The notes under the pieces were generated by a model that was not told the origin of the DNA, searched no databases, and was given only the letters and a program-made list of their open reading frames with translations. DNA of 64,000 nt from a virus (taxonomy: Duplodnaviria > Caudoviricetes): the IMG/VR virus record IMGVR_UViG_3300012667_000244, positions 34,326 to 98,325 of that record. One strand, given 5' to 3'. The translations under genes and the position numbers were made by a program. Below are positions 32,447 to 60,455 of the stretch, piece by piece (the first letter of the stretch is position 1; each line of letters opens with the position of its first letter).

Positions 32447-33418
32447 ATGCAATTTTCTAATATACCATTTAACAACATAGTTCGTTTTGGACAGCGTACA
32501 ATGCTAGCCAATCCATTATTTTCAACCAGTTGGATATTAGGAAGGTTCTGTAATTATAAATGTAGTTACTGCTGGCCCTATGCTAGAAGTGATGTACAGG
32601 ATTACCAAAGCCTAGAACTGTATAAAAGTACAGTAGACGAGATTAAACGACAAGCTCGTGCTAATGGGTTTAATCAATTCCACTGGTCATTCAGCGGTGG
32701 TGAGCCTACAGCATACAAACAGTTGCATGAGTTAATTAAACACTTAGATGAGAAAGAAAGTTCTTATCAAAGTATACACATGACTACTAACCTAAGTCCC
32801 GGAAGCAAATGGTGGAACACTTGGTGTAAGAATACTGAGATGTTACAACGCAGAAGTATTACAGCCAGCTTCCACGATGAGTTTGCTAAAGAGCAAGAGT
32901 TTGGAGACAAGTGTTTACAGTTACAATACGAACTAGTTCATGTAACAGTTAATCAAGTTATGGTGCCTGAGAAGTTTTATGAACTGTATGAGCGCATGGA
33001 ACGATTACACAAGCGTGGAATTAATGTAACGCTCAAACCGCAAAGTGATTTAACTGCTAGCTCAATTGTTGACGGCTATACTGAAGACATGATACACAAG
33101 ATGCGTGAAGGATTTCCGCAAAGAGCACACGGCGAAGAAGTATATCAAATTGCGTTATACGAAGCAGACGGTACAGAACATTTACTAGATCAAGCAGAAC
33201 GGTTTAATGCGTTTGGTTTTAACAAGTTTAAAGATTGGACTTGCAATGCCGGCTATCAGAGTGTTATAATAAGAGGCAACGAAGTTAAGCGGGCATATAG
33301 TTGTCACGCGGCAGAATTAGGAACATTAGATAACTTTACATTATTTGATAGACCTGAAAAATGTATTACACCTAGTTGTGTTAGTTCAGCAGACTCGAAG
33401 ATACCAAAATGCAAATAG
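32447..33418 (+). CDS. Radical SAM protein, C-terminal twitch/SPASM-like (group A)
   Basis: CNYKCSYC, GGEP, WTCNAG...SC...C...SC..SAD.KIPK; TAAATA-N6-ATG. Confidence 0.9.
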   Translation: MQFSNIPFNNIVRFGQRTMLANPLFSTSWILGRFCNYKCSYCWPYARSDVQDYQSLELYKSTVDEIKRQARANGFNQFHWSFSGGEPTAYKQLHELIKHLDEKESSYQSIHMTTNLSPGSKWWNTWCKNTEMLQRRSITASFHDEFAKEQEFGDKCLQLQYELVHVTVNQVMVPEKFYELYERMERLHKRGINVTLKPQSDLTASSIVDGYTEDMIHKMREGFPQRAHGEEVYQIALYEADGTEHLLDQAERFNAFGFNKFKDWTCNAGYQSVIIRGNEVKRAYSCHAAELGTLDNFTLFDRPEKCITPSCVSSADSKIPKCK

Positions 33419-34020
33419 ATACAGAACACTTACATTACTGGATGCAGGCAATACGCCAGAGTCCAGATCCTATGCGGACAATGGATGCCTTCTGGCGAGG
33501 GCAGATTGCAAGCAAAGAATGGTTAATTGATGCGTTGATAAAAGTGTACCCACAAACCTCAGTTAGTTCCAGACCAGTTAGTATTGATATACACGGCGGT
33601 TGGGTTGGCACATTGGCCAGTATGCTCTTTCAAAGTAAGTTCCCTATTGCTAATATTCGTAGTGTTGATATTGATCCAGCCGTTGAAGACATTGCTAGTA
33701 TGATGAATAAGATCGAAGAAATGCAGGGGCGATTTCGTGCAGTAACGGCTGACATGTGTTCTATCCGTAGTGATGCTGATGTTGTTATCAATACTAGTTG
33801 TGAGCATATTACACAAGACGACTACGACTTGTGGTTAAGCGGAATGCCATACAACACATTGCTAGTTTTACAGAGTAATGATTATAGAATACCTGAGCAT
33901 GTTCGTACCGCGAAAGACTTAGAAGAGTTTAAAACACAATGCGGTATTGAAGTACTATGGGCAGGGGAACTTGAATTGCCCCTGTATAAAAGATTTATGG
34001 TAATAGGACACAATGTTTAA
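33409..34020 (+). CDS. Class I SAM-dependent methyltransferase-like protein
   Basis: IHGGWVG, SVDIDP, ADM, VINTSCEH. Confidence 0.7.
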   Translation: MQIDTEHLHYWMQAIRQSPDPMRTMDAFWRGQIASKEWLIDALIKVYPQTSVSSRPVSIDIHGGWVGTLASMLFQSKFPIANIRSVDIDPAVEDIASMMNKIEEMQGRFRAVTADMCSIRSDADVVINTSCEHITQDDYDLWLSGMPYNTLLVLQSNDYRIPEHVRTAKDLEEFKTQCGIEVLWAGELELPLYKRFMVIGHNV

Positions 34021-35104
34021 TTTTAAAGACCTAAAGCAGATTCATTTAGAAGTGACAAACAACTGCCAAGCATCATGTCCTATGTGTGCTCGTAATCAGC
34101 ACGGTGGCCCGGTTAATCCGTTGCTAAGTTTAAACGACTGGACACTGGATGAGTTTAAGCAAATTATCACACAAGAAGTTTTGGATCAAGTTGAACGCAT
34201 TTACTTCTGCGGCAACTTTGGTGATCCTATTCTTAATCAAGATTTAGTAGCAATGTGCCAACACATTAAAGACAATGCACCTGATGTCATTGTTGGCATT
34301 CATACAAACGGTGGCGCACGAAATACCAAGTGGTGGGAATCACTAGCTCAGGCATTGCCTAAAAATCATTTAGTTATGTTTGGCATTGACGGTTTAGAAG
34401 ACACACATCATCTACATCGCATTGGCACAACATATGACAATGTAATCCGTAACGCACAGGCTTTTATCGGTGCTGGCGGAACAGCAGAGTGGACATTTAT
34501 CAAGTTTAAGCATAACGAGCATCAAGCAGAAGAATGCCGTAAGCGTAGCGTTGAGATGGGCTTTGCTAGATTTACTTTAAAGAATAGTTCACGCTTTGTT
34601 GGAGAACCGTTTTGCGAAGTACAAGACAAAGAAGGCAATCATACACATACGATTGAGCCGCCTACAGATACACCTTTGCACTTTATTAGCAAAGCGATTA
34701 TTAATTCCTATAAAGAGTTAGTTGCAGAAGCAGTTATTAGTTGCCATGCACAGCACGAAAAGGAAATCTATATTGATGCACACAAGAAACTATTGCCATG
34801 CTGTTGGGTAAGTTCTATTCCAACAACTTATTACGACAATAAGTTTGTTGACCCAAGCATTGATTACGCAATTAAATCACAGTATGCTAACCTTGTTGCT
34901 GACTTAGGACAACTAAACGCAACAACAGGCATACGCAACATTATCGACTCAGAGCCTTGGCAAACAGTCTGGCACAAGTATTGGAATGAAGAGAAGATGA
35001 TTACTTGTGCAAGAGTTTGCGGTAAGTTTACGAGTGCGGAAATTTCACAACCGAGCGACCAGTTCCTCGAAGTACAGGATAACAGAGATGATAACGCCTA
35101 TTAA
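34013..35104 (+). CDS. Radical SAM/SPASM-like protein (group C)
   Basis: CQASCPMC, CGNFGDP, HTNG, FGIDG, IYID...LPCCW, CARVC. Confidence 0.9.
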   Translation: MFNFKDLKQIHLEVTNNCQASCPMCARNQHGGPVNPLLSLNDWTLDEFKQIITQEVLDQVERIYFCGNFGDPILNQDLVAMCQHIKDNAPDVIVGIHTNGGARNTKWWESLAQALPKNHLVMFGIDGLEDTHHLHRIGTTYDNVIRNAQAFIGAGGTAEWTFIKFKHNEHQAEECRKRSVEMGFARFTLKNSSRFVGEPFCEVQDKEGNHTHTIEPPTDTPLHFISKAIINSYKELVAEAVISCHAQHEKEIYIDAHKKLLPCCWVSSIPTTYYDNKFVDPSIDYAIKSQYANLVADLGQLNATTGIRNIIDSEPWQTVWHKYWNEEKMITCARVCGKFTSAEISQPSDQFLEVQDNRDDNAY

Positions 35105-36125
35105 AATTGTTTCAACACAGCCGGACAATGTCTTAGAAATAAGATGGTGCCCAAACAATGTGTGTAACTTTGATTGCAGATACTGCTTTCCAGGATCGCA
35201 TGATGGCGACTACAAGAGTCCTAAAGACATTGACTTAATTATCAAGAATTTCAACCACTTCTTAAAGCAGTACAAAGAGAAGTTAGGTAAGACTAAAGTT
35301 CATTTAAAGATTGCAGGCGGTGAGCCTACACTGTGGAAAGACTTAGCCATCTTCATTCACGGCATTAAGAAAGAAAATGATGTGTACCTAACACTTATTT
35401 CTAACGGCAGTAGAACATTACGCTGGTGGAAAGAGTACGGACACCTAATTGACAATGTAACACTTAGCTATCACATTGCGGAAGGCGACCGTGATCATCA
35501 TATTGCCGTAGCAGATACTATGTTTGCACTTGGTAAGAAGACCACCGCACTAGTATTAATGGATCCGTATAACTGGGAACAAGGTGTTGCTGACATTGAA
35601 TACATGCGAGCAAACAGTAAGCACAAGTGGTTCATTCAAGCCGCTGAAGTAATTGAGCCAGAACACATGTCGTTGAACAGCATTAAGATTATTAGTGCAG
35701 AAGAACGCAGGTACACTCCAGACCAGAAGCAGTACATGAAGAAAGGCTTGAAGCGCATTCCGGGTGTACTGTGGTTTATCAAGAACTTTAAACTGTTAGC
35801 AAGTGAAATGCGTATCTTTGAAAGTAAAGCAACTTTATCTAATGGTAAGACACTTAATGCACGACCACAAGCCTACATCAATAACAACTGGAATAACTTT
35901 AAAGGTTGGAGTTGTGACCTAGGGCTTGAAGCAGTCTACATTCACTGGGATGGAAGCATTGCAGGTAGTTGTCAACAAAAGCTCTACGGCTTAGACCATA
36001 GCTTCAACATACTAGATAAGGATTTTGTGGAACAGTTTAACCCAGAGTTTAAACCTGTTATCTGCGGAATCAATAATTGTTTCTGCCAACCAGAAACACA
36101 AATATCAAAGTTTAAACTTAGTTAA
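35088..36125 (+). CDS. Radical SAM protein (group A)
   Basis: CNFDCRYC, GGEP, WSCDLG...DG...SC...C...CFC; start trimmed to MITPIK. Confidence 0.9.
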   Translation: MITPIKIVSTQPDNVLEIRWCPNNVCNFDCRYCFPGSHDGDYKSPKDIDLIIKNFNHFLKQYKEKLGKTKVHLKIAGGEPTLWKDLAIFIHGIKKENDVYLTLISNGSRTLRWWKEYGHLIDNVTLSYHIAEGDRDHHIAVADTMFALGKKTTALVLMDPYNWEQGVADIEYMRANSKHKWFIQAAEVIEPEHMSLNSIKIISAEERRYTPDQKQYMKKGLKRIPGVLWFIKNFKLLASEMRIFESKATLSNGKTLNARPQAYINNNWNNFKGWSCDLGLEAVYIHWDGSIAGSCQQKLYGLDHSFNILDKDFVEQFNPEFKPVICGINNCFCQPETQISKFKLS

Positions 36126-37010
36126 CGGAATGTCTGCGGCACAGGTACAGAAGTTCCTGTCGCAGACTACTGGATCTACAGGTTGCATGAATGTACCCTC
36201 GTAGATATTGCCTAGCGATCCGCCAACACGACAAGTAGCACGATGTACATCGCCGTCCCAGTTAATCATTAGACTTTCTATACCAGCATTGCAGGACCAA
36301 TCTTTAAATTTATTTTGATGGTTCTTAATCATATCGTTAGCGTGGGCAAAAACTGGTAATCCGTCATCTGCTTTCGTAAAAAATATTACATTCTCTCTTA
36401 CGGTTGCGTCTTGCTCTTTGATCCAGTTAAGGTCATCTGCATTGTAGCGCATGTCATCAAACAAATCGTGGTCGCCTTCAGTCCATCGTATGCGTCGAAC
36501 TGTGTTTGGAATGTGTGCTAGCAAGCATCTAGTACGCAATATACTTACATTTGTCATATGATCATGGTGGGCCATAATCTGTGCTATCACATTTATCTTT
36601 GTTGAGTCAACAACGCTTTCCATAGTGTTAAACACACGCATCCAATCGTACTCCATGTGTATACTAAACACTAACTGGTCTACAGGCAAGCTGGCATAAA
36701 ACTCATAAGGCAATGTGCCATTGGTCGTTACGCTAATCCAACTAATACCTACATGCTTGCAGTACTGCACCAGTTCCTTAAACTTAGGATGCACAGTCGG
36801 TTCGCCACCTGTAAAACTTATACGGACAGGTTTGCCTAATGATGCTAGTTTATCTACAGCAACTTTCAATACTTCAATGTCAGTGTGCGGGCTAAAGTTA
36901 TCATGTATGCTACTTGGGCAGTAGCTACAATCGTAGTTACAACGCTTGCCAAGGTTCCATTCTACTTTAATAGATCCTTGATGCGGCCAGCGACTGGTAA
37001 CTTTAAACAT
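36105..37010 (-). CDS. Radical SAM protein (group A)
   Basis: CNYDCSYC, GGEP, TTNG, WSCNAG...DG...TC...C...CTC. Confidence 0.9.
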   Translation of the reverse strand: MFKVTSRWPHQGSIKVEWNLGKRCNYDCSYCPSSIHDNFSPHTDIEVLKVAVDKLASLGKPVRISFTGGEPTVHPKFKELVQYCKHVGISWISVTTNGTLPYEFYASLPVDQLVFSIHMEYDWMRVFNTMESVVDSTKINVIAQIMAHHDHMTNVSILRTRCLLAHIPNTVRRIRWTEGDHDLFDDMRYNADDLNWIKEQDATVRENVIFFTKADDGLPVFAHANDMIKNHQNKFKDWSCNAGIESLMINWDGDVHRATCRVGGSLGNIYEGTFMQPVDPVVCDRNFCTCAADIPLTKFKL

Positions 37011-38265
37011 ACGGCTTGAATTCCGGAGTTACATCAGTAAAACTCTGATTACGACTCGCATCTAACTTGCGGTTAAACTCAATAGTATCCTTCCACAAAT
37101 GACTTTCGTCCTTGGCAAACATAAAGTTGACTACACCTTCGATTTGTTTGCGTGTAATTTGCTCTAGGATAGGATGCTTCTTAACCATCTTGTAATCAGG
37201 AATCTTATCTTTAATCAAATGCAGTCGCAACGCCGCAATTTGTTTAAGTTCCATAGGCATAGTTTGTATGCTTAGAACATTAGGGTACTTGACCATGTTA
37301 GTGTAGAAAACAATGTCTAGTTCGTCTAAGAACTTTTCAATCATTCTATCAAGGACCATGATGTTGCTAACTTGCACAGCAACAGCACCTACTACACGAG
37401 TAACATTAGGAATTGCTTGTATAGTTTTTATATTAGCAACAACATCATTAAACACACCATTACCACGAATATACTCGTAGCTATTGTCAAGGCCGTCGAT
37501 CGATACATTGACTGCGACTGATTTGAAATGCGGCCAGTAGTCGTGTATGTTTCTTCCACCTTTAATGCCTGTAGTTGTTCCGTTAGTTGCGTATTTGATT
37601 TCGATTTGATGTCCATAAGGCTTTAACATGTCTAAGATTTTATAGTGGGTAGGATCCATTAGCGGCTCGCCACCTGCGAATTCTACACGACGAAAGTAAG
37701 GCAATAGCTTTTCTAAGCTAGCCCACCATTTAGGATTGTCTGTAAACTTATCTAAGTAGGGTTTGTTTGCTAAGTTTAAGTCCTTAATGGCCTGCACCAT
37801 AAAGTTATTTTCTTTAACATAAAACTCCTCTACTTCTTTCCAGTCATTCCAACTTGTACTATCCATCGGATGACACATGCGGCACTTTAAGTTACACAAG
37901 TTGTTCAGTTTAAGTTCCATTGTAGGAATCTCAAACGGCATTGTATAGTCTGCCGATAGATTATCTAACGCATTAGGATACAGTGTAATGCGGCTTTCTG
38001 GAATCTTAGGTTCGATGTGTCGTTGTCTTAACGATTCAACTCCTTGGTCTTCTAGACTAAAGCAAGGTTCACATTCTTTAGGACGCTCATTGTTCAGCAC
38101 TTGCTTACGAATGCGTGTCATTGTGTTGTTATTCCAGATCTCTTCTAAGCTCTGACATTGCACATTACCAATCGGGTGGCTACGGCAACACACTTGTATG
38201 GCACCATCTTCTCTAGTTGCTAACCCTGTGAACGGGTGCATACAAAATGTTTTACTTGTCTGCAT
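37003..38265 (-). CDS. Radical SAM protein with N-terminal twitch (group B)
   Basis: FCMHPF...VCC...CEPC; CNLKCRMC; GGEP. Confidence 0.9.
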   Translation of the reverse strand: MQTSKTFCMHPFTGLATREDGAIQVCCRSHPIGNVQCQSLEEIWNNNTMTRIRKQVLNNERPKECEPCFSLEDQGVESLRQRHIEPKIPESRITLYPNALDNLSADYTMPFEIPTMELKLNNLCNLKCRMCHPMDSTSWNDWKEVEEFYVKENNFMVQAIKDLNLANKPYLDKFTDNPKWWASLEKLLPYFRRVEFAGGEPLMDPTHYKILDMLKPYGHQIEIKYATNGTTTGIKGGRNIHDYWPHFKSVAVNVSIDGLDNSYEYIRGNGVFNDVVANIKTIQAIPNVTRVVGAVAVQVSNIMVLDRMIEKFLDELDIVFYTNMVKYPNVLSIQTMPMELKQIAALRLHLIKDKIPDYKMVKKHPILEQITRKQIEGVVNFMFAKDESHLWKDTIEFNRKLDASRNQSFTDVTPEFKPYV

Positions 38266-39109
38266 TCTCTAAATACCTTATTAGTGGACTAATACCTACA
38301 GGCTTGTTATCTTTAAGCGCAAGGTAAATGCTTTGCGTTGGCATAAGATTAAAGTCGTAACATACTCTGCGATATCGTGTTCCGTGTGTTACCCACATGT
38401 AGTCAGGCGGCAAGTTGCGAACAAAATGCAAGCCGATCATAGCTAATGCACGATTGTTCATACGGAAGTCATTCATTATTGTAACACTATCAGCACCAGT
38501 TTGTCTAGTCCAGCGTAAGCCAATTCTATTCCACCCTAGCCCTAACCCTTTAGAAAGACTAATGCCGACTGAATGAATTGCTGGATGGCCCAGATCGAAA
38601 GATATATCCCGACAGCAAGTGACCCAAGCCCCATCGATATGCACAGCAATACCTTTAATAGTCGCTTCATGTAATATTTCCTCTATGTTTGAGTGTACTG
38701 CGCCTGTACTAGGAAATGGCATTGCTATGATTAAAGGAACACCAGGTATCAAACTACCTACATCCTTAGTAAAGCCAAGTCCTAAACGCTGGTGATATCT
38801 GTAGTCACCTGTGATAGTTTGTACAGGCCCTTGCATATACAAGTTATCAATGTACTGTGTACAACCATTAATGATATCAACACGATCAAAACTATCAAAG
38901 CCTGTTATGTTATTAAGTTTACTAGCAAACAACCAATTGGTCATTTCTTGTTTGAATTTAGTGTAAACGCTATCAGTAATATCCGTATCTAGTTTGCCTG
39001 TCATTACATCGCGGATCAATTGTTCAATTGTATTGTCTGTAATTGGGCTAGGTCTATCTACTTCTAAATAGTCTGCTGAGTAGGTGGGTGCTGTTCTTAT
39101 ACGGTCCAT
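38252..39109 (-). CDS. Fold-type I PLP-dependent enzyme (aminotransferase-like, short)
   Basis: PFPSTG, HIDGAW, SLSKGLGLGWNRIG (PLP Lys); start trimmed to 39109. Confidence 0.7.
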   Translation of the reverse strand: MDRIRTAPTYSADYLEVDRPSPITDNTIEQLIRDVMTGKLDTDITDSVYTKFKQEMTNWLFASKLNNITGFDSFDRVDIINGCTQYIDNLYMQGPVQTITGDYRYHQRLGLGFTKDVGSLIPGVPLIIAMPFPSTGAVHSNIEEILHEATIKGIAVHIDGAWVTCCRDISFDLGHPAIHSVGISLSKGLGLGWNRIGLRWTRQTGADSVTIMNDFRMNNRALAMIGLHFVRNLPPDYMWVTHGTRYRRVCYDFNLMPTQSIYLALKDNKPVGISPLIRYLENADK

Positions 39110-39154
39110 GAAATATTTATATACGCACTTAACTCCACTAAATATTTCCATGGA
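39105..39154. promoter_or_regulatory. Back-to-back late promoter cassette (inverted repeat)
   Basis: TCCATGAAATATTTA...TAAATATTTCCATGGA; TATAAATA-N4-ATG (minus) and TAAATA-N5-ATG (plus). Confidence 0.7.
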
Positions 39155-40574
39155 ACATACACAAAAAGTATTTTGGCTTCAACCAGAATCAACGCAAATA
39201 GGCAGTTGGCAGAAACAGATCACGGACATTGCAGGAAGCCCTAGCTTCTGCGTCCTACCATGGATACACATTGCAACTCGTCCAAACGGAGATATGCGTG
39301 TATGTTGTGTGGCTAATGCAAGTGGTGCTGACACGGGCGACTACTCTGTAGGATTGGTTAAGAAAGAAGATGGGGAGCCTGCTAACTTTGGAAACAGTTT
39401 ACCCAGCGAAGCTTTCAACAACGACTACATGAAGAGTCTACGCAAGACCATGTTAGAAGGGGCAGTACCTGCTAGTTGTAAAAAGTGCTACGATGAAGAA
39501 GCACAGGGCATTAGCAGTAAGCGCATCTGGGAAACAGGCACTTGGCATTACGAAGGTGTAGACATTCCCGAGCTGATTAAGCAAACTGAAGAAGATGGTT
39601 CAGTTCCATACAAGCTACAATACCTCGACCTACGCTTGGGACACACCTGCAACTTAAAATGTATTATGTGCAGTCCACACGATTCGAGTATGTGGGTCGC
39701 TGAACACAAGAAAATATTTCCTATCATTCAAAGTCCTGTTATCCGTAGCCAGATGGAATGGAATCAAGCAGACTTTGACAACTACTGGCATGAGAAGCCG
39801 GAGTTCTGGGCAGAAGTTTTTGACCAGATCCCTAACATTAAACAACTATACTTCGCAGGCGGCGAACCCCTGTTGATCAAAGAGCATAGAATATTCTTGG
39901 AAGAGATCATTCGCAGAGGTTATGCCGACAAGATTCTCCTGCGCTACAACAGTAATGGCCTACTAGTAGACGATGCCATGATTGATCTATGGAAACACTT
40001 CCGTAAGGTCAAGTTCAGTATCAGCATTGATGGCATCGGCGAACGCTTAGAGTACATTCGCTATCCAACTAACTGGAAGAAACTAGAAGCAGTCCTGTGG
40101 AAGTTGGAGGCTGCGCCTGAACATATTCATACTAACATTGAACTAGCTGTGCAACTGTTAAACATCAAGCACATTCCAGAGTTTATCAAGTGGAAGATTA
40201 ACAGTGGTTTCAAGAAACTTAACATGGGCACCAATGTAGTAGGACAACAACTAGGCGGTGGCATTGCTAATGCACACTTGTTATGGATTCCTACATGGAT
40301 GAATGTGCGGGTCTTACCTAAAGAAGATAAAGAAGAAGTCCGCGAACTGTTTGAAGAACTTAAAAGATGGCTATGGGAAAACTATACGCAGGACAAAGAG
40401 TTCTGGGTCACTAACCCTTACGGATGGAAACGCTGGGAAGGTATGTTAGACTTTATGGACAGTGAAGATCAAAGCTACTTGTTGCCTGACTTTAAAGAGT
40501 TTATCAACACTATGGACAAGCAACGCAAGACAGACTTTAAGGCTGTATTTCCAGAGTTGGCACATTTGAGTTAA
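39150..40574 (+). CDS. Radical SAM protein with N-terminal twitch (group B)
   Basis: FCVLPW...RVCC...CKKC; CNLKCIMC; GGEP; start trimmed to 39150. Confidence 0.9.
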   Translation: MEHTQKVFWLQPESTQIGSWQKQITDIAGSPSFCVLPWIHIATRPNGDMRVCCVANASGADTGDYSVGLVKKEDGEPANFGNSLPSEAFNNDYMKSLRKTMLEGAVPASCKKCYDEEAQGISSKRIWETGTWHYEGVDIPELIKQTEEDGSVPYKLQYLDLRLGHTCNLKCIMCSPHDSSMWVAEHKKIFPIIQSPVIRSQMEWNQADFDNYWHEKPEFWAEVFDQIPNIKQLYFAGGEPLLIKEHRIFLEEIIRRGYADKILLRYNSNGLLVDDAMIDLWKHFRKVKFSISIDGIGERLEYIRYPTNWKKLEAVLWKLEAAPEHIHTNIELAVQLLNIKHIPEFIKWKINSGFKKLNMGTNVVGQQLGGGIANAHLLWIPTWMNVRVLPKEDKEEVRELFEELKRWLWENYTQDKEFWVTNPYGWKRWEGMLDFMDSEDQSYLLPDFKEFINTMDKQRKTDFKAVFPELAHLS

Positions 40575-41265: not shown

Positions 41266-41307
41266 GAAATATTTACCCTAGTTAAAGTAGCACATAAATA
41301 TTTCATG
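41263..41307. promoter_or_regulatory. Back-to-back late promoter cassette (perfect 13-bp inverted repeat)
   Basis: CATGAAATATTTA...TAAATATTTCATG; TAAATA-N4-ATG on both strands. Confidence 0.7.
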
Positions 41308-52580: not shown

Positions 52581-53158
52581 GAATAGACTGCTTGATAGAT
52601 GCCTGGTAGAGGATTTCCAGGCCACTGGATGTAATCATTAAAGCCACGCTCTACTAGCAACTTCATATCCAATCTCCCATCTGTTTCTAGTTTGTTAACT
52701 AGCTCCTCACGCTGGTTGTTTAGTATCGGCCTGTAAAAATCCATTGCTATAGGTTGTTCGCTATAGCTACTAGCAGAATAAAAAGACCATGCGTGTATCT
52801 TATTATTAGTGTCTACATAAAAGTACTTGGTATAAAAGCTAGGCTTGTATATTTGCTCGGTATGCAAGTCTTTAGTTATTTGTAACAACTGTTCAGCGCA
52901 GTCATCGGGCACACTGTCCTCGCATGTATTGCCGTACCACTTAAAGTATATGCGTCTAAACTGCTGGTCAAAGTTAACACACTCCGGTGCCCAACTATAC
53001 TTTGATAACTGTAGCAAGTATCTACATTCTCTGTTGTACACTTCGTCAACTAACTCTTGTGGGTAACGATCGCCTTCTGGATTAAACTCCATTATGGCTA
53101 AGTTACCCTTTGTCATTAAGGTAAAAATACCGTGGTCAATAGTTGTCAAGATGGTCAA
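52577..53158 (-). CDS. Protein-kinase-like fold, catalytic Asp residues missing
   Basis: YNRECRYL...WAPE...IYFKWYG...LH...YKPS; paralogue of 53960. Confidence 0.5.
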   Translation of the reverse strand: MTILTTIDHGIFTLMTKGNLAIMEFNPEGDRYPQELVDEVYNRECRYLLQLSKYSWAPECVNFDQQFRRIYFKWYGNTCEDSVPDDCAEQLLQITKDLHTEQIYKPSFYTKYFYVDTNNKIHAWSFYSASSYSEQPIAMDFYRPILNNQREELVNKLETDGRLDMKLLVERGFNDYIQWPGNPLPGIYQAVYS

Positions 53159-53936
53159 TTCCTAACTTCTTGCGGAACGCTTCTGTAAACTTGCCGTCAA
53201 TGCGTAAGCTGTAACTCTGTTCCATAATGCGTTCACCACCGTGCCAGTCTTGGTCGTTCCACCATGCGGCACGAGTGTTAAGATACACTTTGTTTTTCTT
53301 TTCTGGATCCCATACATAGAATGCTTTCTTAGTATTAGGGCGTATATGTATAAACTCGTTACGATGTGGCATCATAACATTCATGCCGTTCTTTGCATCT
53401 AAGTCTCTGTGCTCAAAAGGAATACCATCGTGGTCGCAATGAAAGAAGATTACACGACCAATGTGTTCAAACACTGTACCTTGTAATTGCTCAACCCACT
53501 TAACCACATTGGGAAAGTGTGCAGCCTCTTCAGTGAGCTTGCGTGGGGCTGTGCGATCGTCCCAACTGCCTTCTTCCCAGAGGAAATAGTAAATGTACGG
53601 GTCGTATGCCCCCATAGCCATTTTAAGAAATCTTGTTAGTTTGTTACGCATCTTGTAATCACTGAAGTCTTTACAAAACGCACTACCTGCTAGTTTAATA
53701 GGATCGTTGTCATCTAATGCCTGGAACTCTGCTAATGCTTGATACATAGGTTTCCAGTTTGGTTGATAGCTCATGTCTTCAAAAGTAAATCCAGGCTTCA
53801 TCCAAGTTCCTTCTTTAGCGAACTCTCGTGCAGTAGCGAAGCCCGCGATTATTTCGGGCTGTAGTCTGTCAAACTCTGCCATATCTAAGTGTTGTTCCAT
53901 GCTATAATATGGAATGCCGTTTATGCCCTTGATCAT
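53136..53936 (-). CDS. 2OG-Fe(II)/AspH-like oxygenase
   Basis: GRVIFF...FEHRD...WHGG...SLRIDG; GAGG RBS. Confidence 0.6.
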   Translation of the reverse strand: MIKGINGIPYYSMEQHLDMAEFDRLQPEIIAGFATAREFAKEGTWMKPGFTFEDMSYQPNWKPMYQALAEFQALDDNDPIKLAGSAFCKDFSDYKMRNKLTRFLKMAMGAYDPYIYYFLWEEGSWDDRTAPRKLTEEAAHFPNVVKWVEQLQGTVFEHIGRVIFFHCDHDGIPFEHRDLDAKNGMNVMMPHRNEFIHIRPNTKKAFYVWDPEKKNKVYLNTRAAWWNDQDWHGGERIMEQSYSLRIDGKFTEAFRKKLGIDHLDNY

Positions 53937-53959: not shown

Positions 53960-54646
53960 ATGAACTACGAATACTACTACAACAATGTGCCAGGTTCCGG
54001 CTTGTGTCGTAACAATCTTATTTACACTAGTTTAATGAGTGCCGATAAAAAAGTTTTCGTGCAACATTACACTACAGAAGGCGACTACCATAAAGGGCAG
54101 AATCAAGTAGTAGATCCAAAATTAATGGAAGATAAGTTCCAGCGTGAAGTCAAGTACTTGCGTATGATGGAAAAGATATTTCCAGAGTTCGTTCCAAAGA
54201 TCTTGATGATTGATAACTGTGAACGCAAAATATACTTAGAAGTAGAAGGTCCGGACTTTTGGGAACTAGCAGGCTGTGACAGCGCAAACTTTGATAAAGT
54301 CTTGCCCGACTGGCAAGAACAGATGCTGACAATCATAGAAGCACATCATGCAGTATGTTTGTACAAATATTCAATGCACCCTAGCAGTTATTTTATTATA
54401 GACGGCAAACTGAAAAGCATTAACTACTTCTTTACCTATCACCTAATAGAAGGTCCTATTAGTATTGCCGACCATACTAGTCACATCTATAGCACTAGAC
54501 AAGAAGAGATGAAGAAGGCAACAGATGCTATGGGCATTAGTTGGACTGAGCCGCAGCCGTTAGCCCTGCTAGAAGAATTGTGCTGGGAAAGTTTTAGAAA
54601 GAACTATCCAGCTGACTTTATTGAGAAGGCTAAATGTATAAAATAA
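53960..54646 (+). CDS. Protein-kinase-like fold, catalytic Asp residues missing
   Basis: FQREVKYL...FVPKIL...IYLE...YKYSMHPSSY...LKSINYF. Confidence 0.5.
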   Translation: MNYEYYYNNVPGSGLCRNNLIYTSLMSADKKVFVQHYTTEGDYHKGQNQVVDPKLMEDKFQREVKYLRMMEKIFPEFVPKILMIDNCERKIYLEVEGPDFWELAGCDSANFDKVLPDWQEQMLTIIEAHHAVCLYKYSMHPSSYFIIDGKLKSINYFFTYHLIEGPISIADHTSHIYSTRQEEMKKATDAMGISWTEPQPLALLEELCWESFRKNYPADFIEKAKCIK

Positions 54647-55170
54647 TTCCGTGGACCCCGGAACTAGACCTAACTGAATTCTATGCTGAAGCAGACCGTA
54701 GGGGTTTTGTAAATAACGCTAGTCAGAAGGCAATGATAGATTGCTTCAAGAACGAGCGTGAGTGGTGTGTGTGGATTCTTTACTACAACAATAAGGCCGT
54801 AGGCTCAGTGGGCGCACACAGCATAGATGAAGGTTATCGTATTTGTGCAAGGACTTGCTTGTTCAGTGATCAGTTGCCAGCTACTACTTTGCGTACTAGA
54901 AATCAAATAGCAACGCATCAGCATTACACAGCACAGTTCTTCATGCCAGTGTGTATCGAATGGGCTAAAGGTGACATGTACATAACCACACATCCTAGTG
55001 ATGTAGGTACGCAACGACTTGTACATACCGTATGGGGACCAACACTGGAAAAGACTGGTGTGCTGACTAGAGCATTTGAAAAAGAATATCGTGGACATGT
55101 ACAGACTTTCTGGAAGTTAAATAGTTCTGTATTCTTAGAACAACTAAACAAGGTAGAGCGATGGAATTAA
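54634..55170 (+). CDS. GNAT-fold acyltransferase-like protein
   Basis: WILYYNNKAVGSVG...RICAR...MYITT pattern. Confidence 0.5.
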   Translation: MYKIIPWTPELDLTEFYAEADRRGFVNNASQKAMIDCFKNEREWCVWILYYNNKAVGSVGAHSIDEGYRICARTCLFSDQLPATTLRTRNQIATHQHYTAQFFMPVCIEWAKGDMYITTHPSDVGTQRLVHTVWGPTLEKTGVLTRAFEKEYRGHVQTFWKLNSSVFLEQLNKVERWN

Positions 55171-56243
55171 CCATATCATTATGTGAACACTGCTACAGAC
55201 ATGTACCAGCAGAAAAGTTTGAGCGTGACGGAAGCATCTGGATGAAGAAGACTTGTCCTGTTCACGGCGAATCAGAATACATGATAGAGCGTGATGCAGA
55301 GTTCTACAACACATTGGAGTTTGACCCTTACGGCTATGATGTTCCAAGCGGCATTATGGTAGAAGTCACAGACCGTTGCAACTTGAAGTGTCCGCATTGC
55401 TATCACGAACCCGAGTCAGCAACCACAGACAAACCTATTGACCTAATCTTAGCGCAAATTGAATCGTGGCCTGATGATGCTGGTAGTGTTATCCTTGCAG
55501 GTGCAGAACCTACTGTAAGAAAAGACCTACCGGAACTTATTCGAAGTGTGGCAGATTTACAACAGAAATTGGGCAGAAGTCACCAGGATATTACCATCCT
55601 TACAAACGGCGTAAAGCTAAGTGATAGGGCTTGGGTGCAAGAGATTAAACAAAGCGGCTGTAGGGCTGTTATGATAGGTTTAAACCACCATAGCTACCAG
55701 GGTGAAACTGTGCATCGCAAGCAACTTGAAGGCATCCAAAATTGTAAGGAAGAAGGCATACTTTTGTACTACATTGGATATACACTAGAAAGTATTACAC
55801 ACATTCCGGATGTTTTGGAAGAAATTCAACTGCTAGGCGATAGTGCTACACAATATCGTATCCGTGCTGGCAGTGACATTGGACGCAACCCTGACGAGCC
55901 ACGCTACTACCTAAGCGACCACATTAAGGAAATCAAAGCCTACTGTGATAGTCGAGGCTGGACATGGGAAAAGATTCCTGCTGATGACAACCTGTATCAC
56001 TACATGGTCAAGATCAACGGAATTGTACATAGACTGATCCAGTGGAGTGATCCTAAGACTATTGACATGGAAGAACTGCGTTGTGGCCCATGGTGTGACT
56101 TTGTGCCAGGCAAGCCTATTACTAACTTCTTACATCAGATCATGTTGCGTGATCAAGCAGTTAATAAAAATATGATGTTGTGGGATACTGTCCCAGAACG
56201 CTATCAGTTCCGTAGCAGGGAAGCGATGCGCTTAGATCCTTAA
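55161..56243 (+). CDS. Radical SAM protein of the MJ0619/tetraether-synthase-like architecture
   Basis: N-term SLCEHC...VPA...K.CPVHG metal site; EVTDRCNLKCPHC; GAEPT; TNG. Confidence 0.8.
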   Translation: MELTISLCEHCYRHVPAEKFERDGSIWMKKTCPVHGESEYMIERDAEFYNTLEFDPYGYDVPSGIMVEVTDRCNLKCPHCYHEPESATTDKPIDLILAQIESWPDDAGSVILAGAEPTVRKDLPELIRSVADLQQKLGRSHQDITILTNGVKLSDRAWVQEIKQSGCRAVMIGLNHHSYQGETVHRKQLEGIQNCKEEGILLYYIGYTLESITHIPDVLEEIQLLGDSATQYRIRAGSDIGRNPDEPRYYLSDHIKEIKAYCDSRGWTWEKIPADDNLYHYMVKINGIVHRLIQWSDPKTIDMEELRCGPWCDFVPGKPITNFLHQIMLRDQAVNKNMMLWDTVPERYQFRSREAMRLDP

Positions 56244-56587
56244 CGCTCTAAATAATTTACAACTGTATCTTTAGGATTGAAGAACTCGTTAACTGTATAG
56301 AGTACAACAGTTCTGTTGAAAGGTTTACAACTAAACAAGTCAATGTAGCCTGCTCGAGTAGAGTTTACAAAGTGTGCAGTTATATTACTAGTTGTAATCA
56401 TCTGCAATACACTGTAGCCCTCATTGTCAGTTCCTGGCAATAGGAATTCAATTTGCGGTTCACCATGTGCAACCATATCAACTCTATCGATCAATACTCT
56501 GACAAACTCAGCAATACGCTCTTTGTCAGTAATGTAATCTAGATTACACTCTGTGCAATCAACCATCATATGATATCCCCAAGCCAT
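56240..56587 (-). CDS. speD: S-adenosylmethionine decarboxylase proenzyme-like
   Basis: GYH...DC, GYS...ITTSNITAH, YIDLFSCKPF. Confidence 0.8.
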   Translation of the reverse strand: MAWGYHMMVDCTECNLDYITDKERIAEFVRVLIDRVDMVAHGEPQIEFLLPGTDNEGYSVLQMITTSNITAHFVNSTRAGYIDLFSCKPFNRTVVLYTVNEFFNPKDTVVNYLER

Positions 56588-57273
56588 TATAGTTCCTTAA
56601 GAATTAGTTCAGCTAATGCTGTGTGTGCTTCTTGGTCATAGTGTCTGTAAGGCAACTGTTTGAACTTGCGTTCAATGCACCATTTGGCGTACGATGCATG
56701 TCCTTCAAAATCTAACACATTGTCTGTTGTGCTAAACTCTTCAGTAACTAACGGGATATGCAAGAAGTCAGTGGCATACATTGTGCAGGTGTTGTCTACA
56801 TGGAACATAAGCTCGTTCATGTTATTGTAAGGCCTAAGTATGTTTTTAATGAACACATCGTTAATTGGATGTTCCATTCCCTTACGCTTAATAGGGCCTT
56901 CCCATTGTAGTCCAACTTGTATAAAATTATCTGCATCACGCCCTAGAAAGTTACCTGCGTCCGGATAATAAAATTCTGAACGGTCAGTGCAAGTGTAGCC
57001 AAATAGCACTAAACTGTTAGGATGCTCTTGAACTGCTTTAGTTAATAGTCTAAGACTGCGAGCATTGCTCCCGCCTGTCATAGCATAATTGTAACAAGGA
57101 ACTTTTAATTGGTTTGCTACTATTTGCGGAAATGCTAACACTTTGCCCGGGGCATCTAATTCTTCTATTGTTAGTTTACCCTGTGTGTAATCATCTAGCC
57201 CGCCCTGCCCGGCAAGTTCACACCCTGCTACATGGCTATCGCCAAATGCTAATACGGATTGAAAATATTTCAT
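56587..57273 (-). CDS. SGNH/GDSL hydrolase-like protein
   Basis: FGDSH, NYAMTGGSN, C-terminal HY...AH. Confidence 0.7.
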   Translation of the reverse strand: MKYFQSVLAFGDSHVAGCELAGQGGLDDYTQGKLTIEELDAPGKVLAFPQIVANQLKVPCYNYAMTGGSNARSLRLLTKAVQEHPNSLVLFGYTCTDRSEFYYPDAGNFLGRDADNFIQVGLQWEGPIKRKGMEHPINDVFIKNILRPYNNMNELMFHVDNTCTMYATDFLHIPLVTEEFSTTDNVLDFEGHASYAKWCIERKFKQLPYRHYDQEAHTALAELILKEL

Positions 57274-57301
57274 GATGTTTTTATCTGCTTAAATATATGC
57301 T

Positions 57302-58915
57302 ATGTTTAATGTAATACTATTTACCGATGCGCCGTATCCTCATCACAAAATCCGCGGGTATGGTGTTCACCGTATTGCTAGCCAAATCAGAGCCAACGGC
57401 TACACTTGCTTAGTTGTAGACTTTAGTTCAGCACTCACCTTTGACAAGTATAAAGAGATCATAGATGCCAGTGTTGGCCCTGAAACCCTAATGGTTGGTT
57501 ATAGTACTACATGGTTGCCCTATCGTTGGCCCGAACTGCCCGGAGAGTTTACTAATCAAATTCCTGGGCACTACATCGGTGAAGATCACGAGCTAAGTAA
57601 TACCAAAGAAGAAAAGCACGACTGGCGCAAGGACAACCTAGTTGTTAAGTTTGGCAAAGATGAAGTAGACGAGTTTTTACAGTATCCTAAGACTATCAAT
57701 CCTAAACTTAAAATTGTACTAGGTGGAGCAAAGGCAGACTTCTACATGGACTTGAAGAATGTGGACCATGTTATCTTTGGCATTGCTGAAACAATGACCA
57801 TTGACCTGCTGGACAAGTTAAGCGGCAAAAGCAAACGCATATTCAACAAGTTTATTGACCATGATCGCAAAGCACATGCCGACACATGGGACTTTCGTGA
57901 AAGTTCTACACGCTACACAGAACTAGACTTTATACAGCCACAAGAAACACTAACACTAGAAGTAGGTCGGGGATGCCGTTTTAAGTGTGCATTCTGCAAC
58001 TTTCCCTTAATTGGCCAGAAGAATGTCAACGACTACTTAAAGTATCCTAATAAGATCCGTGATGAGCTATTAGAAAACTACGAACGCTGGGGAACTACAA
58101 AATACTTTATTGTAGACGACACATTTAACGACAGTACAGAAAAATTAGAAATGATGGTTAAGGTCATGCGTGACTTACCATTTAAGATCAAGTTCTGGTG
58201 CTATACACGCATCGACTTATTAGCGGCACATCCTGAACAGATAGAGCTATTGAAAGAACTAGGTGTTGCTGAAACATTCTTCGGCCTTGAAACATTTAAT
58301 GATCAAAGCTCAAAGACTATCGGCAAAGGTATGCCCAGCAGTCGCCGCAAGGATACTCTGTACCGAGCAAAAGAAGCGTGGGGTGATCGTGTCACAATGG
58401 AAGGCGGCTTTATGATTGGCCTGCCCTATGAAACACAAGCTAGCTGGCGCACGACAGTAGACTGGTTAAAGCAAGCAGATTGTCCTTTAGACATCAGCAC
58501 TTGCTATCCTGTTAACATTGTTAAAAAGTCAGATCGCAATCAATGGTTCCCTACCAGCTGGTTCGACAACAACTACGAAAAGTTTGGTTATGAGTTTCCG
58601 CATGAAGGCATTGAAGGTATGCTAGCATGGGAAAAGAATGACGGCACTGACATTACTAGTTTTATGCAGGCCCAAGAAATTGCAGATGCTACAACACAAG
58701 AACTAGCACCTTACCAACGCATACGCCGTGGCGACTTTTACACTAGCAGTTTTAATCATCCGTTATTCTGCGACAGAGAAAAGACTCTAGATATGTCGCC
58801 TGCAGAATATACTAAGTTGTTTGAAGGTATTGACTTTGATCAATTGTTCTTTGAACATACTAATAGAGATTACTTTATTCCCCTACTGAATAAACTAAAG
58901 GGTCGCAATGTTTGA
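57302..58915 (+). CDS. Class B-type (B12-binding-domain-like) radical SAM protein
   Basis: N-term G..RIAS..R..GY...VVD...VLGG; GRGCRFKCAFC; DDTFN; FFGLET; IGLPYET. Confidence 0.88.
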   Translation: MFNVILFTDAPYPHHKIRGYGVHRIASQIRANGYTCLVVDFSSALTFDKYKEIIDASVGPETLMVGYSTTWLPYRWPELPGEFTNQIPGHYIGEDHELSNTKEEKHDWRKDNLVVKFGKDEVDEFLQYPKTINPKLKIVLGGAKADFYMDLKNVDHVIFGIAETMTIDLLDKLSGKSKRIFNKFIDHDRKAHADTWDFRESSTRYTELDFIQPQETLTLEVGRGCRFKCAFCNFPLIGQKNVNDYLKYPNKIRDELLENYERWGTTKYFIVDDTFNDSTEKLEMMVKVMRDLPFKIKFWCYTRIDLLAAHPEQIELLKELGVAETFFGLETFNDQSSKTIGKGMPSSRRKDTLYRAKEAWGDRVTMEGGFMIGLPYETQASWRTTVDWLKQADCPLDISTCYPVNIVKKSDRNQWFPTSWFDNNYEKFGYEFPHEGIEGMLAWEKNDGTDITSFMQAQEIADATTQELAPYQRIRRGDFYTSSFNHPLFCDREKTLDMSPAEYTKLFEGIDFDQLFFEHTNRDYFIPLLNKLKGRNV

Positions 58916-60455
58916 TGTTGTCCTGTTTACTGACACAGTACAGTTTGATGTTAAGTCTAGAGGCTACGGCGCACACAGACTAGCAAGTCATTTGCGAGCT
59001 AACGGCTACACTTGCCTAGTAGTAGACTTTAGCAGTGTAGTCACATACGATATCTATACTGCAATCTTAGACAAGGCAATTGGCGCTAACACATTAGCCG
59101 TGGGCTACTCAACAACTTGGATGCCGTTTAAACTAGACGGTGAAGCTCGTACACGCAACCCGGGTGAAGGCGATGACAACGATGCAGAACGCTTGCACAA
59201 CAGTAGTCTAGTCAGTAGCTTTGCACAAGGCGACTACAGTTGGATTGACTTTGTTAAGCAGAAGAATCCCAAGACACGAACTATCCTAGGTGGCGCTAAG
59301 ATTGACTTTTATCTTGATGCACCTGTGGATCATATAGTTGTGGGCATAGGCGAAACTGAAACACTAGACCTAATTGACAGCATTGCTAAGAAGAATAGAC
59401 GCATCTTTAGTCGTATTGTTGACCACGATCGTAAAGCACACAATAGCTCTTGGGACTTTAGAGATAGCACAACAAGTTATACAGAGTACGATCTAATTCA
59501 GCCCAACGAAACTCTTAACCTAGAAGTCAGCCGTGGCTGTATGTTTAAGTGTGCTTACTGTAGCTATCCGCTGATTGGACAAAAGACCAAAGACTACCTA
59601 AAGCATCCCGAAGTCCTACGCAAAGAGTTGATCGACAACTACGAGCGCTGGGGTACAACCAAGTACTTTATTGTAGACGATACATTCAATGACAGCACAG
59701 AAAAGATGCAGATGTTTACCGACATTAGTCAGAGCTTGCCTTTTGAATTAAAGTTCTGGTGCTACTTGCGAGCAGACTTGTTGGCAGCGCACCCGGAACA
59801 GATACAGCTACTTAAAGATGCTGGCATACAAGAAACTTATTTTGGCATAGAAACATTTAATCCCAAAACTGCTAAGTTTATCGGCAAGGGAATGGCTAGC
59901 GATAAGATCGTAGATACAATGTACAAGTGTAAGGAAGTATGGGGAGAGCGTAGCTACATTGCCGCGGGTATTATCATAGGATTACCTTACGAAACACAAT
60001 CTACTATACAAACTGCTGTAGACTTCTTTCGCAGAGACGACTGCCCTATTGACCTTGCCAACACATTCCCCCTGAGTATTATCGGCAACCATGACCTAGT
60101 CAAATACATGTACATGAGCGAAATTGATCGCAACTATGGCAAGTACGGCTACTACTTCCCTAATCCAGAAGACAACTACTATAAGTGGCGCAAGGATGAT
60201 GATACAGATATCAACAGTTATGAGCAAGCAGAAGAACTAGCACAGTTGATTAATCCCACACTACCGCACATGCCATATCGCGGCTGTTTCTATACAAGTA
60301 GTTTTAGTGACGCTAGAATAAGCGACCGAGAAAAAAATTTAGACTTAACAGACGATGAATATCAAAGTCTAGTTAAGTCTATCAATTTCACAGAACTCTT
60401 TTACGAGACTGTTAAACGGGATTACTTGAATCCCTTAATTGCTAAATTAGTTTAA
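58908..60455 (+). CDS. Class B-type radical SAM protein (tandem paralogue)
   Basis: SRGCMFKCAYC; shares NYERWGTTKYFIVDDTFNDSTEK with 57302. Confidence 0.88.
   Translation: MFDVVLFTDTVQFDVKSRGYGAHRLASHLRANGYTCLVVDFSSVVTYDIYTAILDKAIGANTLAVGYSTTWMPFKLDGEARTRNPGEGDDNDAERLHNSSLVSSFAQGDYSWIDFVKQKNPKTRTILGGAKIDFYLDAPVDHIVVGIGETETLDLIDSIAKKNRRIFSRIVDHDRKAHNSSWDFRDSTTSYTEYDLIQPNETLNLEVSRGCMFKCAYCSYPLIGQKTKDYLKHPEVLRKELIDNYERWGTTKYFIVDDTFNDSTEKMQMFTDISQSLPFELKFWCYLRADLLAAHPEQIQLLKDAGIQETYFGIETFNPKTAKFIGKGMASDKIVDTMYKCKEVWGERSYIAAGIIIGLPYETQSTIQTAVDFFRRDDCPIDLANTFPLSIIGNHDLVKYMYMSEIDRNYGKYGYYFPNPEDNYYKWRKDDDTDINSYEQAEELAQLINPTLPHMPYRGCFYTSSFSDARISDREKNLDLTDDEYQSLVKSINFTELFYETVKRDYLNPLIAKLV

Follow-up and report, generated by a model that had tools for sequence, protein, structure and literature searches.

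Gene content of the island

The window analysed here comprises the final 64 kb (positions 34,326 to 98,325) of the 98,325-bp IMG/VR record IMGVR_UViG_3300012667_000244, a virus of the Caudoviricetes. CheckV completeness of the record is 27%; 73% of the genome is thus missing from it, and all results given for the whole contig are subject to this limit. An island of tailoring enzymes occupies window positions 32447-60455. It consists of 32 open reading frames (ORFs), g01 to g32, that abut or overlap one another except at five divergent junctions; there the genes are 22-40 nt apart, which leaves no room for a hidden ORF. A first-pass annotation, made from the sequence alone, had proposed such a contiguous block of about 32 genes, and the ORF map bears this out. 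The G+C content is flat across the window (0.40-0.43). In agreement with the same annotation, Pfam scans of the island revealed no nonribosomal peptide synthetase, polyketide synthase, transporter or peptidase. They likewise revealed none of the hallmarks of RiPPs (peptides made on the ribosome and then modified after translation), namely a precursor peptide, a RiPP recognition element (RRE) or PqqD domain, a leader peptidase, and an exporter; a RiPP cluster was therefore rejected.

Ten genes (g01, g03, g04, g05, g06, g08, g14, g28, g31, and g32) score above the cut-off of the Pfam Radical_SAM profile (PF04055) and each carries one intact CxxxCxxC motif, which confirms the ten radical S-adenosylmethionine (SAM) enzymes annotated initially. 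All-against-all BLASTP sorts them into three paralogue sets, a tandem pair, and a singleton. Family A is composed of g01 (32447-33418, +; Pfam 7e-13; CNYKCSYC), the first gene of its operon with a TAAATA-N6-ATG start, g04 (35007-36125, +, start codon uncertain; 1.5e-12; CNFDCRYC), and g05 (36105-37010, -; 2e-14), which shows a partial match to STM4011 far below the cut-off. Family B contains g03 (34013-35104, +; 5e-10; CQASCPMC) and g14 (43595-44644, +; 9e-11; CNAACPQC), similar to each other at 3e-51 in BLASTP. The third set, hereafter N-twitch, contains g06 (37003-38265, -) and g08 (39150-40574, +), in which the auxiliary SPASM/twitch domain is N-terminal to the radical SAM core: SPASM spans residues 8-68 of g06, with CNLKCRMC at 124, and residues 56-136 of the long ORF of g08, with the CxxxCxxC motif at 189. 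These two genes reach the sole curated NCBIfam cut-off attained among the ten, that of NF033640 (N_Twi_rSAM, 170 bits), with 326.8 and 402.7 bits. A third N-twitch gene outside the island (19378-20766, -) scores 341 bits in a six-frame search. All three (327-403 bits) thus resemble NF033640 and share the auxiliary domain preceding CNLKCxMC; however, this subfamily is uncharacterized, and here its members belong to a multi-family cassette that NF033640 leaves undescribed.

The tandem pair g31 and g32 (57302-60455, +) encodes B12-binding-type (class B) enzymes that are 52% identical (Radical_SAM 1.6e-17 and 1.3e-17; weak B12-binding match) and show partial matches, below cut-offs, to PhpK and ladderane-type enzymes. 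The singleton g28 (55161-56243, +) has an N-terminal zinc ribbon (Zn_ribbon_HMPTM 8e-16; Radical_SAM 7e-17) and is Tes/TrsS-like, with partial matches to both of 87-93 bits, far below the cut-offs. The remaining matches to characterized NCBIfam families also fall far below their cut-offs. As no such cut-off is reached, no reaction can be assigned to any of the radical SAM enzymes.

Eight HxD...H oxygenases had been annotated, of which g10, g11, g12, g15, and g17 stand, whereas g25 is a lead from the ESM Atlas and g13 and g22 show the motif only. The g10 protein (41305-41970, +) is an AspH/Cpz10-type Fe(II)/2-oxoglutarate (2OG) beta-hydroxylase; over the HxD...H core its family profile matches Cpz10 (PDB 7v4f, 4e-18), which acts in the biosynthesis of caprazamycin, and H81, D83, and H125 are invariant. 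The paralogous cupin hydroxylase-like g11 and g12 (41967-43045, +; invariant H105, D107, and H162) align to the g10 family by hhalign (91.5%, 8.5e-7) with the HxD and the distal histidine in register. Pfam Asp_Arg_Hydrox identifies AspH-family hydroxylases in g15 (44637-45290, +; 3.6e-10) and g17 (46577-47122, +; 7.6e-20). The g25 protein (53136-53936, -) is probably an AspH-like hydroxylase according to its Atlas score of 0.96 to a viral PF05118 cluster, and its H176, D178, and H232 are nearly invariant; neither hhalign to the g10 family nor PDB profiles back this assignment. For g13 (43042-43617, +), g22 (50315-50950, -), and g25, hhalign gave no significant link to the g10 family; the g22 alignment was weak. 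The start codons of g07, g08, and g22 were corrected to 39109, 39150, and 50950, respectively; the uncorrected long ORF of g22, now read from TATAAATA-N4-ATG, ran over the start of g23.

The predicted class I SAM methyltransferase g02 (33409-34020, +) is the single-copy hallmark of the island. Its AlphaFold2 model (pLDDT 95.6) has DnrK, ChlM, and NodS as Foldseek neighbours (3e-10), which supports the methyltransferase fold annotated initially; being generic, these structural matches do not point to a particular substrate. Two pyridoxal-phosphate (PLP) enzymes were also claimed and found. The g07 protein (38252-39109, -; TATAAATA-N4-ATG) is of fold type I, as shown by its invariant SLSKG and HxDxAW motifs, and weakly matches threonine aldolase and SspA. 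The other, g21 (49134-50318, -), is a class III aminotransferase (Pfam Aminotran_3 1.2e-40). It contains GKSFTGGY and DDIAMCGGKTG motifs, which we take to resemble those of BioA-type (diaminopelargonic acid) aminotransferases. Enzymes of the BioA type use SAM as the amino donor, so this possible likeness is of interest beside a SAM decarboxylase and ten SAM-consuming enzymes. The small paralogous proteins g24 (52577-53158, -) and g26 (53960-54646, +) adopt a protein-kinase fold according to the match of their family profile to PDB entries (TTK 8e-6, Bud32 1e-3), in line with the two kinase-like proteins noted before. Pfam scans of all members of the g02 and kinase-like sets and of the g25 family returned only weak methyltransferase and spermine synthase matches.

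The annotation of a halogenase-family flavoprotein, an amidinotransferase, and a SpeD enzyme was likewise confirmed. The g23 protein (50973-52580, +) belongs to the flavin-dependent halogenase family (Pfam Trp_halogenase, PF04820, 3.7e-82) and is 27-31% identical to cyanophage and pelagiphage homologues. The GxGxxG motif is present as GGGSSG; as the WxWxIP position reads WKWYDN, its halogenating activity is at most putative. The amidinotransferase g20 (48129-49172, +) is closest to the inosamine-phosphate amidinotransferase StrB1 (PDB 1bwd, 7e-23) and also matches HsvA (6.5e-20), AGAT (1e-12), and SxtG. The g29 protein (56240-56587, -) is a SpeD-type SAM decarboxylase (Pfam AdoMet_dc 1.9e-16). 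Other assignments stood in part. The QueC-like ATPase g09 (40537-41265, -) has a PP-loop SGGADS (SGGxDS) motif and the QueC-type C-terminal zinc motif, but it scores only 24.1 bits against a Pfam cut-off of 22, over the C-terminal part, so that its predicted QueC identity is marginal. The putative short-chain dehydrogenase/reductase (SDR) g18 (47112-47723, +) shows GxxxGIG and YxxxK, but its adh_short match (1e-4) is below the cut-off. The supposed GNAT g27 (54634-55170, +), kept beside g26 in ~10 loci, and the supposed SGNH protein g30 (56587-57273, -; GDS at residue 11) were called from motifs only and have no Pfam or PDB match. PDB profile searches returned nothing for g02, g25, g27, g30, or a 653-aa fibre-like ORF outside the island. 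Only two PHROGs families were matched, both without known function, by g20 and by g19 (47713-48132, +; phrog_10325, 2.5e-21).

The g16 protein (45277-46599, +) is one of a family found only in viruses, with at least 167 members and no Pfam domain. Its AlphaFold2 model (pLDDT 78.6) tentatively comprises an N-terminal GT-A/NDP-sugar-transferase-like domain, which VIA-align superposes on the LH3 accessory domain (Z 9.4), PBCV-1 A64R (Z 9.3), and mimivirus R699 (Z 8.5), and a Rossmann-like C-terminal domain (NNMT, Z 7.9). The arrangement, an AspH-type g15 adjoining a GT-A-like g16 that aligns with both proteins, recalls LH3 and A64R. It differs in that the sequences are 5-8% identical, LH3 is matched through a non-catalytic accessory domain, g16 has an additional Rossmann domain, and its activity is predicted only. 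The g15-g16 adjacency is kept in 7 loci. This agrees with an ESM Atlas cluster of 688-aa proteins resembling g16 (score 0.84, a lead only), in which AspH is found in 97% of members. By hhalign, a 644-aa weak-GT2 protein of relatives is linked neither to g16 nor to the 653-aa ORF of the window.

Conservation, borders, and operon starts

A search with g08 retrieved 73 IMG/VR loci at 44-96% identity, and the cassette, as recognized by homology, is present on at least 73 IMG/VR contigs, including those of phages of 350-370 kb with a T4-type capsid. The capsid gene Gp23 was identified in three relatives of 353 kb (99% complete), 201 kb, and 169 kb (1e-80 to 1e-99); it has no match on the present contig, which is 27% complete. 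No close cultured relative was found: when 20 kb of the island were compared with GenBank phages by megablast, nothing was returned, and the matches of g08 in tBLASTn were all distant (22-27%), to a fragment of a marine virus, to two Vibrio phages, and to Ralstonia phage RsoM2USA. More than 4290 N-twitch relatives of g08 are found among metagenome proteins (E<=1e-10), and a 368-kb relative recurs in ~60 assembly blocks. Ten or more radical SAM enzymes, three families of which have no assigned reaction, thus occur in a virus, which points to undescribed chemistry, and this abundance suggests that natural waters are probably a site of large-scale synthesis of the product. As catalysts, radical SAM enzymes are costly and sensitive to oxygen.

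The island had been described as a single unit, which does not hold: it consists of a widely conserved core and variable genes. Within 10 kb of g08, flanks that limit the picture, radical SAM family A and the methyltransferase g02, always in a single copy, are each present in 68 of the 73 loci, the N-twitch set in 66, and family B in 65. Next come g10 (47 loci), g11/g12 (43), g07 (40), g24/g26 (38), g09 (33), g25 (26), and the class B radical SAM genes (17). As judged from homology, the core comprises the radical SAM families A, B, and N-twitch, g02, g07, g09, g10-g12, and g24/g26, and the variable set comprises g20, g21, g23, g28, g29, g31/g32, and g15/g16. Gene order and orientation are shuffled among loci and the numbers of paralogues vary. 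The segment g13-g22 is shared at ~90% identity only with two near relatives. In the 368-kb relative, homologues of g21, g28, g31, and g32 are placed further out than 10 kb.

The slot itself is fixed. On the left, a Metallophos gene followed by small ORFs (28366-32214) is syntenic in up to 18 loci. The right border is g33 (60447-61685, -), a fibre-like gene with an Mtd_N domain (Pfam 1.2e-8) and without a match among phages, as the reported tail-fibre gene at the island end implied. In the 368-kb scaffold both borders match the window, with the Metallophos block on one side and the Mtd_N fibre-like gene followed by an AAA_33 kinase on the other, and between them lie ~30 kb of different but related tailoring genes. 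The mis-assembled host fragment contemplated by the first-pass annotation was ruled out by the uniform GC content, the synteny of both borders, and the presence of Gp23 in relatives.

The operons of the island begin with a distinctive box. Ten TAAATA-N3-8-ATG sites exist in the whole window, seven of which open an ORF of at least 100 aa, and all 7 precede the first genes of island units: g01, g07, g08, g09, g10, g22, and g31. The boxes lie at 32441-32449, 39107-39152, 41263-41307, 50948-50962, and 57288-57304, and divergent gene pairs share the palindromic core AAATATTT. The arrangement is found before 36 of 47 g10, 30 of 44 g07, 17 of 48 g01, and 11 of 33 g09 homologues in relatives, and before none of the internal g02 (0/67) and g05 (0/53) homologues. 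As the boxes end 4-6 nt before the ATG, the mRNAs would be almost leaderless. In T4, TATAAATA is the established late promoter. The boxes claimed in the first-pass annotation are thus real and specific to operon starts, and the giant virion gene and a fibre-like gene of the window have (T)ATAAATA further upstream, 20-40 nt from the start; late timing and leaderless starts of the island operons are nevertheless only what we infer from these motifs.

Divergent from g01 lies a 117-nt tRNA-like RNA gene (32243-32359, -) with a perfect TTGACA-N17-TATAAT promoter (to 32394). An acceptor stem of 7 bp and a T arm are present, the variable arm is long, and the CCA is encoded in the gene; an extended hairpin of variable length, reduced to a bare tetraloop in one relative, takes the place of the anticodon loop. 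At least 15 distinct loci keep it immediately next to the 5' end of g01, and compensatory changes in 12 of 22 predicted pairs argue that it is a real RNA, although ARAGORN and Rfam detected no RNA gene in the window. The G3:U70 pair of the present copy is not kept in relatives. The start-abutting TAAATA boxes at operon starts and the conserved tRNA-like RNA beside g01 are new here.

Substrate and fate of the product

Cellular relatives of the core provide an indication of the substrate. Among 201 sampled genomes of the Bdellovibrionota, 45 encode proteins above the NF033640 cut-off (a Bdellovibrionales metagenome-assembled genome, MAG, and 44 others), and 12 carry at least eight N-twitch genes, often as tandem arrays on chromosomes. 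One 2.9-Mb chromosome (G168) contains a 25-kb cluster of ~11 radical SAM genes of the three core families (A, B, and N-twitch) together with g07-like and g02-like genes, all five families being 24-46% identical to those of the island. The cluster is contiguous with two clear GT2 glycosyltransferase genes (623 and 325 aa, precomputed Pfam). Two faint GT2-like proteins, a weak PMT_2 match, and an FAD oxidoreductase are also encoded, a content by which it differs from the island, and housekeeping genes flank it. Over 40 kb of G168, BLASTP detected neither a Cpz10-like hydroxylase nor a kinase-like protein, and likewise no halogenase and no amidinotransferase. Similarly, GT1/GT4/GT28 genes surround the g02 homologues (37-41% identity) of a Casimicrobiaceae MAG and of Mesorhizobium sp. 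CA8.

Viral relatives point in the same direction. An NDP-sugar 4,6-dehydratase/epimerase gene (3e-36) is inserted within the cassette in 7-8 loci, and further inserts encode a UDP-Glc/GDP-Man dehydrogenase, an NTP_transf_3 nucleotidyltransferase, a carbamoyltransferase, and sulfotransferases. In the 99% complete relative, a 1580-aa open frame with two GT1 and one GT2 domains lies ~20 kb from the cassette. The cellular GT2 and other glycosyltransferase clusters, the inserted sugar genes of relatives, and the GT-A-like g16 together suggest a carbohydrate substrate. Of the substrates put forward in the first-pass annotation, a virion glycan therefore fits best, and the chromophore found no support. 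The shuffling, duplication, and swapping of genes in a fixed slot beside a fibre gene also count for a glycan, as they resemble O-antigen-type loci and the host recognition cluster (HRC; PMC7029224). The closeness of g20 to StrB1 and of g10 to Cpz10, and the boxes next to the start codons of first genes, are further points in favour of late sugar tailoring.

The HRC of T4-like pelagimyophages and cyanomyophages is the nearest published description. It is a hypervariable fibre region with radical SAM cassettes and glycosyltransferases; radical SAM gene cassettes distinguish two related HRCs of pelagimyophages, in which AspH is a core gene (Zaragoza-Solas et al. 2020, PMC7029224). The first-pass annotation overstated its case in calling the system undescribed, as these cassettes are mentioned there. 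Like the HRC, the present island is hypervariable and associates fibre genes with fibre-unrelated ones, and, to judge from the Gp23 of relatives, it would reside in a T4-like aquatic myophage: its content differs among the 73 loci, an Mtd_N gene borders it, and fibre-like ORFs are found at 14564-18122. It differs in that the phages are larger (350-370 kb against 140-200 kb), at least ten radical SAM genes dominate the island, no classical glycosyltransferase is recognized in it by Pfam, and ligase, UvdE, and QueD genes separate the fibre-like ORFs from it. We would class the present case as a variant, rich in radical SAM genes, of the hypervariable glycan and host-recognition islands of phages. 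Our analysis contributes the chromosomal cluster linked to GT2 genes, the fixed slot delimited on both sides, the boxes where operons begin, and the g15/g16 pair. The three core radical SAM families have no characterized enzyme or product.

Resemblances to antibiotic pathways are partial. Twitch and class B radical SAM enzymes, an aminotransferase, an SDR-like protein, kinase-like proteins, and a StrB1-like g20 (7e-23) occur together as in aminoglycoside and streptidine biosynthesis; however, the island has no cyclitol or 2-deoxy-scyllo-inosose synthase and no DegT-type aminotransferase, and AprD4 scores 25-32 bits against a cut-off of 500. The streptidine logic of the first-pass annotation is thereby reduced to the amidinotransferase, and a streptidine/aminocyclitol pathway was rejected: the aminotransferase is of class III and no cyclitol synthase, including inositol synthase, was matched in Pfam. 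The island radical SAM enzymes presumably resemble BtrN and GenK, which tailor aminoglycoside sugars. Cpz10, closest to g10, acts on a nucleoside-linked small molecule (PMC9814697). As the other caprazamycin genes, such as a LipL/LipK-type set, are lacking, g10 and Cpz10 share a fold and chemistry and not a pathway.

From the gene content, conservation, context, and promoter-like boxes, we infer the substrate class, the timing, and the destination of the product: with a probability of about one half, the island is expressed late and tailors a sugar or glycan with which the virion or the cell envelope is decorated. It would be a hypervariable, probably late-expressed enzyme factory whose fixed slot lies in the ~360-kb genome of a T4-like jumbo phage not yet cultured. 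The core would apply serial radical and oxygen-dependent edits (C-H activation, epimerization, dehydration or C-methylation, hydroxylation, amination, methylation) to a nucleotide-activated sugar or to sugars already in a glycan, and the variable genes (g20, g21, g23, g29, g31/g32, g28, g15/g16) would supply extra decorations. The product would most plausibly be displayed on the virion, at the fibres, or on the infected cell's envelope, where its strain-to-strain variability would matter for recognition.

Several observations weigh against this interpretation. Pfam finds no glycosyltransferase, nucleotidyltransferase or sugar-nucleotide enzyme in the island or on the 98-kb contig, where PF00535 and PF00534 have no match. 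The neighbours of the Bdellovibrionales MAG locus are FabH-like, AMP-binding, and SDR genes, not glycosyltransferases, and the context evidence is drawn from relatives at 30-45% identity. The radical SAM families, as far as profile scores can tell, have no assigned reaction, none reaching the cut-off of a characterized family. The modelled GT-A fold of g16 is tentative, its Z score of ~9 being barely above the quoted background of the tool (7-8). The late timing would rest on a motif, while 73% of the genome is missing. Finally, AspH-family and kinase-fold proteins are equally typical of protein substrates.

This last point leads to the main rival, the direct post-translational modification of virion proteins such as fibres, baseplate, and the 3406-aa giant protein encoded in the window, which we consider unlikely. 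The AspH-type enzymes would hydroxylate, the kinase folds phosphorylate, and the radical SAM enzymes cross-link, epimerize, or methylate, with g15/g16 glycosylating the new hydroxyls as LH3 does on collagen. The Mtd_N fibre-like gene bounding the island, the fibre-like ORFs near the third N-twitch gene, the up to eight AspH/cupin-type and two kinase-fold proteins, the match of g16 to the LH3 accessory domain with the 97% AspH content of the cluster resembling it, and the late-type boxes common to island and structural genes are all consistent with such a role. However, fibre genes are not conserved with the cassette, a match to g33 being present no more than 10 kb from g08 in only 3 of the 73 loci, and the island lacks RRE/PqqD, a leader- or repeat-type substrate gene, and an HxS protein. 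The amidinotransferase, the aminotransferase, and SpeD point to small-molecule chemistry, and the nucleotide-sugar genes of viral relatives and the glycosyltransferases of the cellular cluster would be left unexplained. The HXS system (HxsA-D, PMC13128918) was rejected separately, as no window ORF shorter than 400 aa has at least four HxS motifs and the scores for HxsC, 28-47 bits, are far from the cut-off of 268.

Glycan tailoring and protein attachment might also be combined. In this speculative and rather improbable version, the phage would make a new class of radical-edited glycan, composed of C-methylated, epimerized, aminated, guanidinylated, and perhaps halogenated sugars, that the AspH and GT-A-like pair would attach to hydroxylated residues of its own fibres. 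Shuffling of the island would re-code the virion surface and affect host range or evasion, and predatory Bdellovibrionota would use the same chemistry on their own surface. In a bolder form, the anticodon-less tRNA-like RNA beside g01 would be charged and serve the pathway as an aminoacyl donor.

A diffusible small molecule or nucleoside-type natural product made during infection (antibiotic-like, signalling, or cofactor-like) seems to us quite improbable. Cpz10-like, StrB1-like, halogenase-family, class B radical SAM, PP-loop, and PLP enzymes are all typical of secondary metabolism, and FabH-like and AMP-binding genes adjoin the core in the Bdellovibrionales MAG, yet Pfam scans reveal no scaffold synthase, exporter, or resistance gene. 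A lytic phage would profit little from a compound made late, and a displayed structure would accord better with the position beside a fibre gene and with the shuffling between strains.

The association of a kinase, a PLP enzyme, and a radical SAM enzyme resembles known thymidine hypermodification pathways. Together with the QueC-like g09, a QueD/PTPS gene at 13468-14046 (-; Pfam 1e-11), and the conserved tRNA-like RNA beside g01 in at least 15 distinct loci, it raises the alternative of nucleic-acid hypermodification, either of DNA bases (7-deazaguanine or thymidine type) or of the adjacent RNA. We hold this to be very improbable. No tRNA-guanine transglycosylase (TGT, PF01702)/DpdA or GTP cyclohydrolase I was matched by Pfam on the 98-kb contig at E<=0.1, although a divergent DpdA may escape PF01702, and QueE scores 20-33 bits against cut-offs above 200. 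The marginal g09 travels with the cassette, late-type boxes are ill-suited to the synthesis of DNA precursors, the RNA has a sigma70-type promoter and probably a different timing, and the glycosyltransferase context of the cellular clusters would be left unexplained. For the contig, which represents 27% of the genome, an orthodox preQ0 pathway was set aside as unlikely given the negligible QueE scores, the lack of FolE and TGT matches, and the marginal g09.

Equally doubtful is a hot spot collecting unrelated auxiliary enzymes without a common substrate: content differs strongly among relatives, and many cyanophages and pelagiphages carry dispersed genes for halogenase, SpeD, and 2OG oxygenases (PMC7029224), but the five core families (g01, g02, g03, g07, and g08 types) occur together on a Bdellovibrionota chromosome, ten families recur in 26-68 of the 73 viral loci, and the genes are tightly coupled or overlapping with gaps of at most 40 nt.

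If the product is a surface glycan that sets recognition, it would be a new variable in the host range of abundant jumbo phages and would link phage and predatory-bacterium surface biology. The chromosomal cluster of the Bdellovibrionota offers a possible way to the product without phage culture.

Flanking module and binned fragments

Outside the island, the window carries a second, small module of related character (14564-20766) made of two fibre-like ORFs, a 403-aa ORF, and the third N-twitch radical SAM gene. The fibre-like ORFs at 14564-16072 and 16161-18122 encode 502 aa and 653 aa, the latter with repeated NRASASxxLTGxSIDGNAGT units. In two relatives, a 64%-identical orthologue of the radical SAM gene lies 2.4 kb from g01.

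The giant ORF (535-10755, -; 3406 aa) matched 61 records, all from cyanophages, at 24-31% identity. The matching cyanomyophage proteins are annotated as tail, baseplate wedge, tail fibre or hypothetical, which suggests a fibre or baseplate role.

Genes of the g01-g02-g03 type, 56-81% identical, are also found on two small contigs of 6.1 and 1.9 kb that were binned in Bacteroidota MAGs (Crocinitomicaceae and "uncultured Bacteroidetes"), the g02 homologues being 68-72% identical to g02. These contigs were left out of the cellular context and of the evidence on the host. They are probably phage fragments in these bins and provide at most a weak lead to the host.

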